Assembly (NCBI RefSeq): GCF_048593235.1
Contig: NC_133622.1
Span: 228,687,198-228,751,197, forward strand
Length of the DNA: 64,000 bases
Direction of reading: 5' to 3'
Source: Sminthopsis crassicaudata
Taxonomy: Eukaryota
Notes under the pieces: model-generated
The model's input: only the letters and a program-made list of their open reading frames with translations
The model's database searches: none
What the model was told of the DNA's origin: nothing
Shown here: one piece after another, positions 6,301-9,669 of the stretch
Position numbering within the stretch: position 1 is the stretch's first letter
Layout of the letters: each line of letters starts with the position of its first letter
Translations under genes and position numbers: made by a program

Positions 6301-7479
6301 AAATCCCAATTCAATCCAGAGGACCCCCTAGCTGCCTGCTTAAGGTCCCTTCTAACTCTGGTACTCTATCATCATGGTCTGAACTTCTCTAGAGTAGTAT
6401 TTAATATAAACCCATAATTTCTATGTTCATTTCTAGCTATATCATTCTGTGATTTTAGACATAAATATCTATTAAAATGTGTTTTAATTCGTGTTTTTAA
6501 AGAGGGAATTTTTCCCCATAAGAACGTATTGCATAGAATATGTTTTGTCCAAGGATGAGAGGTCGTCATCACAGGTTCTGTCCACACCTGGAAATTAACA
6601 AACTCCCACAGGTGCTTGCAATGCAGAATACACTTGAAAGAAGTTTCAGACATTATCAGCAGCATGAATCACTGAAGCAAAGTGATCCTGAAAGAGTGAG
6701 GAGTTCAAGCAAAAACTCCTTTCCTTTGAGAGTGCATCTTTTCCTCTGGCAGCCAGTATGGAGTCTTCACTTGCTGTGCTGCTATTATTTTCAAGGCTGC
6801 AGTTCAGAGTCTTTGGTACACTGTGTTCTATAAGGATAGTCCTTCACTCTGAGCCTTCCTGAGGTTTCCTTTATTTTTGTTATTTTTTCCTTCTTTCTAG
6901 TAGAAAATATTTTATTTGTAAAGAAAAAAGTAAAAAGGAGGAGGAAAAAAGGTTTTGTTCTCCATTAAGGAGAAGTGGGACAGAAAGCTTCACTCTACAA
7001 TCCAGATGAAATTAAACTAGAATCTGTGGCACACAATGGCCTTCACTAATGTGCCCTCATCACAGGGCTCACTGCTCCCACTGTTCTAGATTTCTAAGGA
7101 CCGATCACAGCTGGGCTGTCCCTGTCACCGAATTTCCATGTCTGATTTAGTGACCATGAGATTAAATTTCACCTTACCCCAGACACTCATTTATTTCCAT
7201 AATGATTAGCACAACCTGCTGTCAGTGACTGATCATGACTCCTAATTTTTTTTAATTTTCTAATAAAGATGTACTTGTTACACATGTCTGTCCAGAATAC
7301 GGAGGCAATACGCATTTACATGCCAATATAAAAAGGTGGACCACAAATCTCTGGAATTCTGAAAGCTAATCTAATAAAAAAAAAACTGTCTGAACTAAGT
7401 AGATCTCTCACATCTCTTTCTATGTCATTTATTCATACAACCTTACCCATGTTCAGTTCATATATTCCTAAAACCCTGA

Positions 7480-7807
7480 TCTTTGTCATTGCCCTTTAGA
7501 AGGGTTGATAGCTCTCCATCATCTTTTTAGATATCACACAATTTCTTCTCCATGGCAATTAAAAGACTTGAAATTCTACCTCCAAACTATAAACTGATTT
7601 CTCACAATTCCCTTTCATACAATCTACAGTCCAGCTAAACTGGCCAGCTGGATGATATCTCTTCCCAGCATACCATCTCAGGTTTTCCCTGGGCCCGGAA
7701 ATGTACTCCGACTTCATCTCTTCCCCAGGGAATCCCAATGTCTCTGAAAAGCTCATCTCAAGTATTGCTTATTACAAGAGAGGTTTCTTCCTATCCCAGA
7801 TTGCTAA
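7480..7807 (+). mobile_element. L2 3' fragment (target of the LTR insertion)
   Basis: 'ccagctaaactggcc', 'aaagctcatctcaagt', 'tttcttcctatccc' resemble the L2 3' region. Confidence 0.55.
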
Positions 7808-7813
7808 AATCCC

Positions 7814-8345
7814 TGTTAGGATTACTAGGTGAGAACTCAGGTTGTCTGGACAGTGACAAGGTGATAACTCAGGTTGACTTGACAGTTCTCTGGCTCAGAC
7901 CTTTGGTTTGGGCCTTTAAAGGGAGTTTACACCTTAGGAATTCTAAGAGGAGAAAGCTCATTGGTTGGGGTACTTCTTCCCAGAAGCCCTTGCATTATCC
8001 CACGGCCATTCTCTGGGAGGATAAAAGAGGACACCACTCCAGAGATAGGAGAAGTCTCTGCACTATATCAGGCTTGACGGGGCTCTCTGCAGGAAGGGAA
8101 GTCACTTCTTTGGACAAGAGTTAAGGGCAACTGCCTGGATACAATGGTTCTCTACAGGAAGAAGAATCTGTCCGAGAGATATGAGTTGACACAACAGATC
8201 TCTTCCCAGAGAGCGATAGGCAGCTTCTGGAGACAACAGCATGCTACAATTGGCGCCCAACATGGGGCCAGGACTTTTCCTTATCCTGACAAGGACTTAT
8301 TCTGAGCCCTTCAGAAGAGCTAGACTGGATCATAGCAAATTCCCA
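7814..8345 (+). mobile_element. ERV class II (betaretrovirus-like) LTR-type element with internal PBS, flanked by 6-bp TSD
   Basis: Starts TG (7814), ends CA (8345); AATCCC at 7808-7813 and 8346-8351; reverse CCAAT (ATTGG ~7960), TATA-like GATAAAA (~8020), 32-bp-period repeat in U3, PBS at 8251. Confidence 0.85.
8251..8268 (+). promoter_or_regulatory. Retroviral primer-binding site, tRNA-Lys1,2 (CUU) type
   Basis: TGGCGCCCAACATGGGGC versus canonical TGGCGCCCAACGTGGGGC (17/18, one CpG-type change), preceded by ...CTACA-AT. Confidence 0.92.
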
Positions 8346-9669
8346 AATCCCCCNNNNNNNNNNNNNNNNNNNNNNNNNNNNNNNNNNNNNNNNNNNNNNN
8401 NNNNNNNNNNNNNNNNNNNNNNNNNNNNNNNNNNNNNNNNNNNNNNNNNNNNNNNNNNNNNNNNNNNNNNNNNNNNNNNNNNNNNNNNNNNNNNNNNNNN
8501 NNNNNNNNNNNNNNNNNNNNNNNNNNNNNNNNNNNNNNNNGTATTACTTTTACTTCATATATATATATNNNNNNNNNNNNNNNNNNNNNNNNNNNNNNNN
8601 NNNNNNNNNNNNNNNNNNNNNNNNNNNNNNNNNNNNNNNNNNNNNNNNNNNNNNNNNNNNNNNNNNNNNNNNNNNNNNNNNNNNNNNNNNNNNNNNNNNN
8701 NNNNNNNNATATATGCTTCTTCTCTGGAAAAACTGATGTTCCATTTAGTTAAGAACTGACTTTTCTCCTGTTTTTATTGCTGTTGATGGTTTCATTGTGT
8801 TTTTTTCAGAATTTTGTATCTCCATAACAGTATTGTGCTTGATACATAGAAGGACCTTAATACTCAATGGATATGCATTGAAATATAAAATGTCTTTATA
8901 TTTTCCATGTATCCCAATCTTATAAAATAGTATAATTATATAATGATATCTCATCCCCACTGTGTTTTTAAAGTAAAATACATCTTAAACAAATCGAGTT
9001 TCATTGACATGAATAAAATTATAAGATTCATGTAGTGCATAGAATATACTTAAACATTTTTCCTCTTGTATGAACTTAATTGGGTTTAATTGTACTTTCC
9101 CCTTAATTATCTAACAGTAATGTTTTAAAGGCAGATTTGACAAAGCAAATCAGAATTATTCTTACATGATTCTATGTATTCACTATTTAATTCCATAGTA
9201 TTGAATTTTTGTCTCTGTCTCTGTCTCTCTCTGTGTTTTTGACTTTCTCTCTGCTTCTTTCTCCCTCTGCTTCTGTCTCCCTCTGTCTCTCTCTCTCTCT
9301 CTATCTCTGAATAACAAGAGATTCCATTACAATATTATATTGGAATTTCAACTAACTTTCATATTAAATTTACATAACAACTATATGACCTCATCACGGC
9401 TTAGGAGATTCAGTGAAAACAGATTAGCAAAGTAAATCAAAACCCACCAAGCCCAAGGACCATTTCTAAAAGAGCTTATTTAGTTTATCTGATTTTCTGT
9501 TCACTTTTCACCAAAGGGTTATTGTGAGGCTTCCAGTTCTAGCTTAATAAAGTTTAATTTGTACCAAATTAAAGGTTATTTGTTATTTAAGAAATTGAAT
9601 CAAAAGCCCCTACACACAAATAATTTTAAAAAATCACCTGTAGCAAATGATGTGTTTGTAGGCAGTAGA

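Follow-up and report, generated by a model that had tools for sequence, protein, structure and literature searches.

A solo long terminal repeat with an internal lysine-tRNA site in Sminthopsis crassicaudata and the tandem primer-binding sites of its endogenous retrovirus family

Retroviruses are taught as having one primer-binding site (PBS), which fixes the U5 boundary of the long terminal repeat (LTR). How, then, does a lone LTR come to carry a lysine-tRNA PBS within its own ends? The question is raised by an element in 64,000 nucleotides of Sminthopsis crassicaudata DNA (NCBI RefSeq assembly GCF_048593235.1, contig NC_133622.1, positions 228,687,198 to 228,751,197, forward strand), a stretch called the window here and numbered from its first letter. 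The element, at 7814-8337, is most probably a solo LTR, in an extended form, of an env-less class II endogenous retrovirus (ERV) family with a tandem two-PBS leader, and probably arose through a minus-strand start at the second site, PBS2 (tRNA-Lys(TTT) type), and not at the first, PBS1 (tRNA-Lys(CTT) type). An earlier reading of the letters (hereafter the sequence-only reading) had ended the element at 8345 and offered two explanations: (a) the lineage had shifted priming to a downstream PBS, leaving a relic site in every solo LTR, or (b) an aberrant cDNA had integrated once. The letters that it cited are all present, namely AATCCC (7808-7813), TG (7814-7815), GCTACA (8243-8248), the 2-bp AT (8249-8250), the 17/18 match to the tRNA-Lys1,2 PBS (TGGCGCCCAACATGGGGC, 8251-8268) and, further 3′, CA (8344-8345) and a second AATCCC (8346-8351), with a run of N from 8354. 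The parts of the locus, as delimited in this study, are listed here.

7808..7813, plus strand: 5′ copy of the target-site duplication (TSD), AATCCC, read from the sequence; its 6-bp size is that of sister copies.
7814..8337, plus strand: extended-form solo LTR, 524 bp, TG...CA, with no polypurine tract (PPT) upstream and no PBS2 downstream, delimited by junction comparison with sister copies.
7814..8248, plus strand: counterpart of the short LTR of the family (U3-R-U5), with GCTACA as its end, where short LTRs end in 21/29 sampled copies and in proviral 3′ LTRs.
8249..8250, plus strand: AT spacer from the first CA end (att1) to PBS1, read from the sequence.
8251..8268, plus strand: PBS1, complement of the host tRNA-Lys(CTT) 3′ end, 17/18, with A for G at 8262 (a CpG-type change); assigned from PMC8775094, PMC1084362 and host tRNA genes.
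8269..8337, plus strand: 69-bp spacer, which is leader in short-LTR proviruses and ends at the second CA (att2, 8336-8337); ATT and PBS2 come next in proviruses (sister copies).
8338..8343, plus strand: 3′ copy of the TSD, AATTCC, 5/6, with one C-to-T change (sequence and sister ends).
8344..8353, plus strand: target DNA, in which an 8-bp tandem repeat continues with its next, AAATCCCC-like unit, containing the CA and AATCCC formerly taken as the right end (sequence).

Two primer-binding sites and two LTR ends

Copies of this family end at either of two places. A 532-bp query (7814-8345) run against the window's own 3.24-Gb genome gave 6318 first-look candidates, of which 40 were scored, and junctions were printed for 29 other loci. 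All 29 start TGTTAGGATTAC..., most have an additional 42-bp U3 tandem unit compared with the window copy, and all 29 share a 3′ end, ...GGACCATAGCA or a close variant, that corresponds to window position 8337. Beyond it, 14/29 continue into ATT (ATG in one) and a second PBS, and 15/29 into unrelated DNA. Among the latter, which are flank-ended extended solo LTRs, a perfect 6-bp TSD lies at the second CA in 10, a 5/6 match in 2, and the duplication is shifted or unclear in 3.

The 5′ end of the family reads U3-R-U5...GCTACA-AT-PBS1-spacer...(C/T)GCA-ATT-PBS2-leader-gag. The spacer between PBS1 and the second CA is 50-69 bp long and is followed by ATT and a tRNA-Lys(TTT)-type PBS2, which reads TGGCGCC(C/T)GAACAGGGAC or is 1-2 letters off (perfect in L009, in L023 and, as far as the copy runs, in L003). 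Two LTR forms result: a short form of ~435-470 bp that ends before PBS1, and an extended form of ~524-559 bp that ends before PBS2. At least three sequence subtypes include extended copies. Either CA can serve as the end, since solo LTRs of each form are seen, as are proviruses with that form on both sides, and perfect 6-bp TSDs lie at the CA concerned. Derivation of the spacer from a duplicated and since diverged U5 end was also considered and rejected: local alignment of spacer and U5 scored 12, a value reached by 74% of 2000 shuffles.

Short LTRs predominate. An unbiased sample of 29 copies, drawn with the part common to both forms as query (window 8050-8248), contains 21 that end at the first CA, 3 that end at the second CA with flank beyond and 5 that run through PBS1, spacer and PBS2. 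The 21 short-ended copies comprise 5 behind a PPT, 6 with perfect TSDs (L071, L077, L081, L085, L086 and L089), 1 with a TSD shifted by one base (L074) and 9, of which 8 are of a U3-variant subtype, whose 5′ ends lay outside the TSD count. Alignments of this U3-variant subtype begin only at query position 134, and its copies include short as well as extended ends. A further sample of 30 3′ LTRs, anchored on the PPT, includes none that extends past the first CA, 16 that reach it and 4 that are truncated or odd. Ten loci (L044, L048, L055-L058, L062, L063, L067 and L068) align to the window LTR only to ~217; they may represent a different R-U5 subtype or interrupted copies.

Proviruses give the same short end. 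When 10 kb behind each of eight 5′ LTRs was fetched, 3′ LTRs were found behind a PPT (...AAAGAAAGGGGGAGA, then TG) and end GCTACA, which is window 8248; 5′ and 3′ flanks match in L034 (GTTTCC) and L036 (AGGAAT), with no match in L033. In total, 8 short proviruses have a perfect TSD at the first CA (L034, L036, L003/L076 and L186-L190). L186-L190 are the 5 informative young short-LTR loci (5/5 with TSD) among 8 loci of U3 type ACTAAG fetched with upstream DNA; they are of a ~3-kb gag-only type, and their LTR pairs differ at 0-1 of ~465 positions. Behind the 5′ LTR, their leader holds PBS1, a short spacer, the second CA, ATT (varied in 3/5) and PBS2, as in extended proviruses. Because most LTRs end at the first CA, PBS1 is the working primer site of most copies and not a relic. 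A PBS in every solo LTR, as the strong form of idea (a) had it, is thus contradicted: 7 of the 21/29 copies that end at 8248 have a TSD there (6 of them perfect) and 0/30 PPT-anchored 3′ LTRs extend, the outcome that had been named in advance as contrary to it.

Extended LTRs also flank proviruses. An exact pattern consisting of the PPT and LTR start followed by TACAATTGG, in which the first CA end runs into PBS1, gave 45 matches against 0 for the reversed control. Thirty of these were inspected: in 25, PBS1 is followed by a spacer that is 19 bp shorter and ends ...CCAGACCTT(C/T)GCA or nearly so, with unrelated flank beyond, and the other 5 comprise L114 (full spacer ending CATAGCA), one unclear end, two that run into PBS2 and one odd copy. 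For 12 extended elements the upstream 10 kb was fetched, and in 9/12 the 6 bp of the 5′ flank recur without mismatch beyond the second CA, as a perfect TSD. The ten measurable LTR pairs differ at 0-5 of ~530 positions, extension included, and most of these proviruses are ~3.6-kb elements that keep gag (Gag_p10, Gag_p24 and zinc knuckles) and lack pro-pol. Two complete PBSs therefore stand in tandem on one element genome, in extended and short proviruses alike, and the products expected from either site are both seen: inter-PBS sequence is absent from both LTRs of short pairs and present in both LTRs of extended pairs. A second PBS follows the extended LTR, as had been anticipated, and both LTRs include PBS1 in extended proviruses but not in short ones. 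Idea (b), in which an aberrant cDNA integrated once, is untenable: the same extended end is found in both LTRs of proviruses and recurs in dozens of TSD-flanked copies that are independent of one another. Two further loci, L100 and L127, have a PPT-preceded extended LTR directly followed by ATT, PBS2 and leader, and look like two tandem elements with one shared LTR. In L191 (= L150), PBS1 is changed in the 5′ leader and unchanged in the extended 3′ LTR; its flanks are unmatched and the 3′ flank is LTR-like. Recombination or nested insertion is the probable origin of this locus.

The two sites correspond to two lysine tRNAs. Both family 18-mers match the PBS-Lys1,2 and PBS-Lys3 18-mers in the form in which these are printed in PMC8775094 and PMC1084362. 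The window's PBS1 agrees at 17/18 with the tRNA-Lys1,2 PBS of PMC8775094, and copy L010 has the perfect 18-mer. Positions 4-18 of PBS1 are complementary to the 3′ ends of host tRNA-Lys(CTT) genes, and ARAGORN calls tRNA-Lys(CTT) at 3/12 loci; positions 4-18 of PBS2 are complementary to the 3′ ends of host tRNA-Lys(TTT) genes, with tRNA-Lys(TTT) called at 4/12 loci. Copy-to-copy variation at both sites is mostly of CpG type. Two extended proviruses with perfect TSDs, L135 (~6845-6870) and L138 (~8406-8430), have the Lys1,2 18-mer at the PBS2 position in place of the Lys3-type one, which looks like the signature of primer copying (a PBS switch) that a mis-paired primer would leave when copied. 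In L109, the 3′ LTR ends at the first CA and is followed by AT, the first 13 letters of a Lys3-type PBS and then unrelated DNA; this may be a retained part of a primer copy or a deletion.

Priming, LTR form and alternative routes

Under the standard model of retroviral reverse transcription, sequence from the RNA 5′ end to the PBS in use would be copied into minus-strand strong-stop DNA and would then appear in both LTRs. Priming at PBS1 would give the short LTR, and priming at PBS2 would place PBS1 and the spacer inside the LTR, after which integrase would use the second CA. With transcription starting at R and polyadenylation at the R/U5 border, either provirus would produce the same genomic RNA (R-U5-PBS1-spacer-PBS2...U3-R), and LTR form would be set anew in each cycle instead of being inherited.

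Counts and phylogeny bear on this prediction. LTRs that follow a PPT and have GCTACA at LTR distance comprise 132 of U3 type ACTAGG and 400 of type ACTAAG, 532 in all (0 in reversed-pattern controls), against 45 extended ones (ACTAGG 4, ACTAAG 40, ACTAAA 1), so that ~8% of 3′ LTRs are extended, a rough figure because the pattern counts are not nested and demanded exact anchors. On a tree built from 3′ LTR bodies, 31 extended and 19 short, taken with the same anchor for both, LTR form needs 16 changes, compared with a shuffled mean of 15.4 (72% of 1000 shuffles were as low), and both starred clades are mixed. Short and extended forms thus appear interspersed on the LTR tree and LTR form is apparently not heritable, in agreement with a form that would be reset each cycle, the RNA being the same from either provirus. 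A separate locus, G000:C3:644064269-644074144, has three PPT-preceded family LTRs within 10 kb on one strand, suggesting a local tandem array or segmental duplication.

Several observations, besides the roughness of these counts, weigh against the reading of the window copy as a product of priming at the second site of a two-PBS leader. The tree is star-like, with 38/47 inner branches unresolved and limited power to detect clustering. When 20 ACTAAG 3′ LTRs off the extended list were fetched, 19 were short and 1 was extended with a changed spacer, which detracts from the accuracy of the counts. Alignments of 10/30 PPT-anchored 3′ LTRs stop near query position 217 and were left out of end-typing. 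At the second end, 3 bases (ATT) separate CA from PBS2, where 2 are usual, and use of PBS2 is itself deduced from its products. About half of copies (for example L002, L008, L009, L102, L104 and L186-L188) have a changed PBS1, with one C-to-T change and one extra base; a host tRNA for this variant was sought, and none of its 4 genomic matches is called as a tRNA. Short-LTR proviruses with 0-1 LTR differences carry this changed PBS1, which simple priming of PBS1 by tRNA-Lys(CTT) does not predict. Finally, the older subtype to which the window copy belongs (69-bp spacer, CATAGCA end) has one extended-3′-LTR provirus found (L114/L132), with flanks that lack a matching TSD; with this single provirus, the step from provirus to solo LTR is least documented for the window's subtype.

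The changed PBS1, common and without a matching tRNA gene, would suit the lineage shift of idea (a), in which a sub-lineage primes permanently at PBS2, PBS1 is a dead relic in U5 and extended LTRs mark the lineage. So would the concentration of extended 3′ LTRs in one U3 type (40/45 are ACTAAG). However, ACTAAG has ~400 3′ LTRs of which ~40 are extended, and 19/20 of the others fetched are short; the two forms are interspersed on the tree; short proviruses with 0-1 LTR differences have the same leader; and extended copies fall in at least three subtypes. We regard a permanent shift as largely refuted and very unlikely. What survives of idea (a) is that a Lys3-type second PBS follows the true extended LTR end in proviruses and that the window copy is best read as primed there; PBS1 as a relic does not survive, and most LTRs are without it.

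A second alternative would dispense with the proviral stage. If both PBSs were primed on one RNA, plus-strand strong-stop DNA might anneal to a short minus strand begun at PBS2, giving a linear one-LTR DNA with both att ends that was never a provirus. The window's subtype, with at least 15 extended solos against 1 extended 3′ LTR seen, and with 1/21 exact-pattern copies being a 3′ LTR, would fit such a route. Yet extended LTRs do flank proviruses (9/12 with TSD), and where flank-ended copies could not be placed behind a PPT the extended form makes up 3/19, compatible with the ~8% of 3′ LTRs. No special route to solo LTRs is therefore needed. To our knowledge, no one-LTR linear integration intermediate with both att ends has been described, and we regard this route as very unlikely.

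The preferred reading, in which the window copy was primed at PBS2 of a two-PBS leader, leaves room for a broader and rather doubtful proposal. The family would then maintain two primer sites in working order, for two different lysine tRNAs and each paired with an integrase end, and LTR length would be a non-inherited, per-cycle trait. Redundancy of this kind could serve as insurance against host defences that target the PBS, such as PBS-binding KRAB zinc-finger repressors and 3′ tRNA fragments, allowing PBS1 to drift, as in the changed variant in about half of copies, while PBS2 keeps the element mobile.

The window copy and its right end

At the window copy, the flanks of the family end at 8337 form an AATCCC/AATTCC duplication (5/6, with a chance of ~0.005 at one fixed place). 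Joined together, the flanking letters at 7807-7813 and 8344-8353 read AAATCCCC AAATCCCCC, an 8-bp tandem repeat. Given such a repeat in the target, the perfect AATCCC that lies 8 bp further on is the next repeat unit. Taken together, the sister ends, the 5/6 TSD and the target repeat place the element at 7814-8337, with one transition in its TSD. The end at 8345 and the AATCCC/AATCCC duplication of the sequence-only reading are therefore replaced, and its 77 bp after the PBS become a 69-bp spacer. Integration of an aberrant right end with 8 extra bases, which would have made the perfect duplication, accounts for the 6/6 match of 7808-7813 to 8346-8351 and for the CA at 8344-8345, but is scarcely credible, since 8338-8345 is found in 0/29 sister copies and is unlike the ATT and PBS2 of proviruses, the 5/6 TSD falls exactly at the family end and the tandem target predicts AATCCC exactly 8 bp on. 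The predicted empty site would read ...AAATCCCCAAATCCCCC... if the end is 8337, and ...AAATCCCCC... with a single unit if it is 8345.

Unrelated DNA without a PPT lies upstream of the element and no ATT and PBS2 follow 8337, which, with the 5/6 TSD, characterizes it as a solo LTR. It is at most 94% identical to other copies (90-94% over the 40 scored) and is an older family member, with the full 69-bp spacer, that was likely later reduced to a solo LTR; its internal part would have been lost by recombination between LTRs. Its U3 (7829-7890 area) has one ~42-bp tandem unit fewer than most copies, from comparison with the 5′ ends of L003-L029, and promoter-like motifs noted by eye are ATTGG near 7962, which resembles CCAAT, and GATAAAAG at 8020-8027, which resembles TATA. 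The element stands alone, as no second family copy was found in the 64-kb window. A minus-strand reading as a tRNA-Lys-derived short interspersed element or strong-stop retroposon was rejected: ARAGORN finds no tRNA in 7000-9500, and the DNA beside PBS1 is proviral leader. An orthologous empty site or an insertion polymorphism was sought in sequencing runs, among which only the window's own species had a large share and other organisms held ~5% of words; contigs X1 and X2 bridge the junction of 5′ flank and LTR, the X9 match is a 40-bp flank repeat only, and none of the contigs spans or skips the insert.

Coding content and known systems

The family is a high-copy, env-less, class II (betaretrovirus-like) ERV, with at least 532 3′ LTRs by exact pattern. 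Its elements have TG...CA ends, a lysine-tRNA PBS and perfect 6-bp TSDs (10 extended solos, 6 short solos, 9 extended and 8 short proviruses). The longer copies encode gag, protease, reverse transcriptase, RNase H and integrase: Pfam domains in open reading frames of L032 and L033 are Gag_p10, Gag_p24, Gag_p24_C, zf-CCHC, RVP, RVT_1, RVT_thumb, RNase_H, Integrase_Zn and rve. In these two copies, open reading frames of at least 100 amino acids gave no env domain, in a search not exhaustive for env. LTR pairs with 0-1 differences suggest that the family has been active recently.

By description, the family resembles marsupial endogenous betaretrovirus 3 (MEBrv 3) of Dasyuridae (Harding et al. 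2024), reported in the main text of PMC11334065 as an env-less gag-pro-pol element amplified by retrotransposition, with a representative LTR of 469 bp. The two share an env-less class II gag-pro-pol organization and high copy number, MEBrv 3 includes some identical LTR pairs, and the short LTRs here are 460-471 bp compared with its 469 bp (PMC11334065). Unlike the family described here, MEBrv 3 is given one LTR length; two primer sites and two LTR forms are not described, and the terms 'PBS', 'primer binding' and 'tRNA' are absent from the main text of PMC11334065. Identity of the two families thus fits by description, with the comparison made between accounts and not by sequence alignment.

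The closest parallel to the leader is engineered. Voronin and Pathak (J Virol 2004) reportedly used vectors based on murine leukemia virus (MLV) and HIV-1 with two PBSs, in which either site starts the minus strand and a downstream start carries the intervening sequence into the LTRs. Tandem leader PBSs and the logic of the products are the same here; the family differs in being natural, in addressing two different tRNAs, in offering integrase a second CA and in having left hundreds of germline products of either kind, from which priming here is inferred. Simian endogenous retrovirus (SERV) uses the same two tRNAs and 18-mers, one replacing the other at a site, as in L135 and L138 here, but in the account of its PBS in PMC8775094 it has one PBS position and a fixed LTR boundary. 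Drosophila Gypsy and yeast Ty3 similarly have more than one tRNA-complementary site per retroelement RNA (PMC1635307, in its treatment of these sites), although there the sites are at opposite RNA ends and serve one tRNA, Gypsy cDNA synthesis needs the 5′ site only, and alternative LTR ends do not feature. Our literature search gave no naturally occurring ERV that combines tandem PBSs with alternative LTR ends, only the Gypsy/Ty3 and engineered-vector citations, a provisional result in that subscription journals were thinly covered and the supplements of PMC11334065 lay outside the search.

The hundreds of germline products that this natural family has left, from tandem PBSs for two tRNAs, offer a record of primer-site choice, so far studied mainly in engineered vectors, with a usage of roughly 9:1 that can be read from LTR length. 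LTR length classes need not correspond to separate families, and repeat annotation would split the two forms into two consensus entries and mis-call leader as LTR. Whether host silencing directed at the PBS selects for redundant primer sites is a question for which the family is also suited. In about 1 in 10 family LTRs, a complete site complementary to tRNA-Lys(CTT) is present away from any provirus, and this part of the earlier idea stands.

The members copied most recently (L130 6972-8794, with its sister loci L129-L140 and L186-L190) are ~3.6 kb long and encode gag (p10, p24 and zinc knuckles) without protease, reverse transcriptase or integrase; such gag-only members would depend on longer copies for enzymes.

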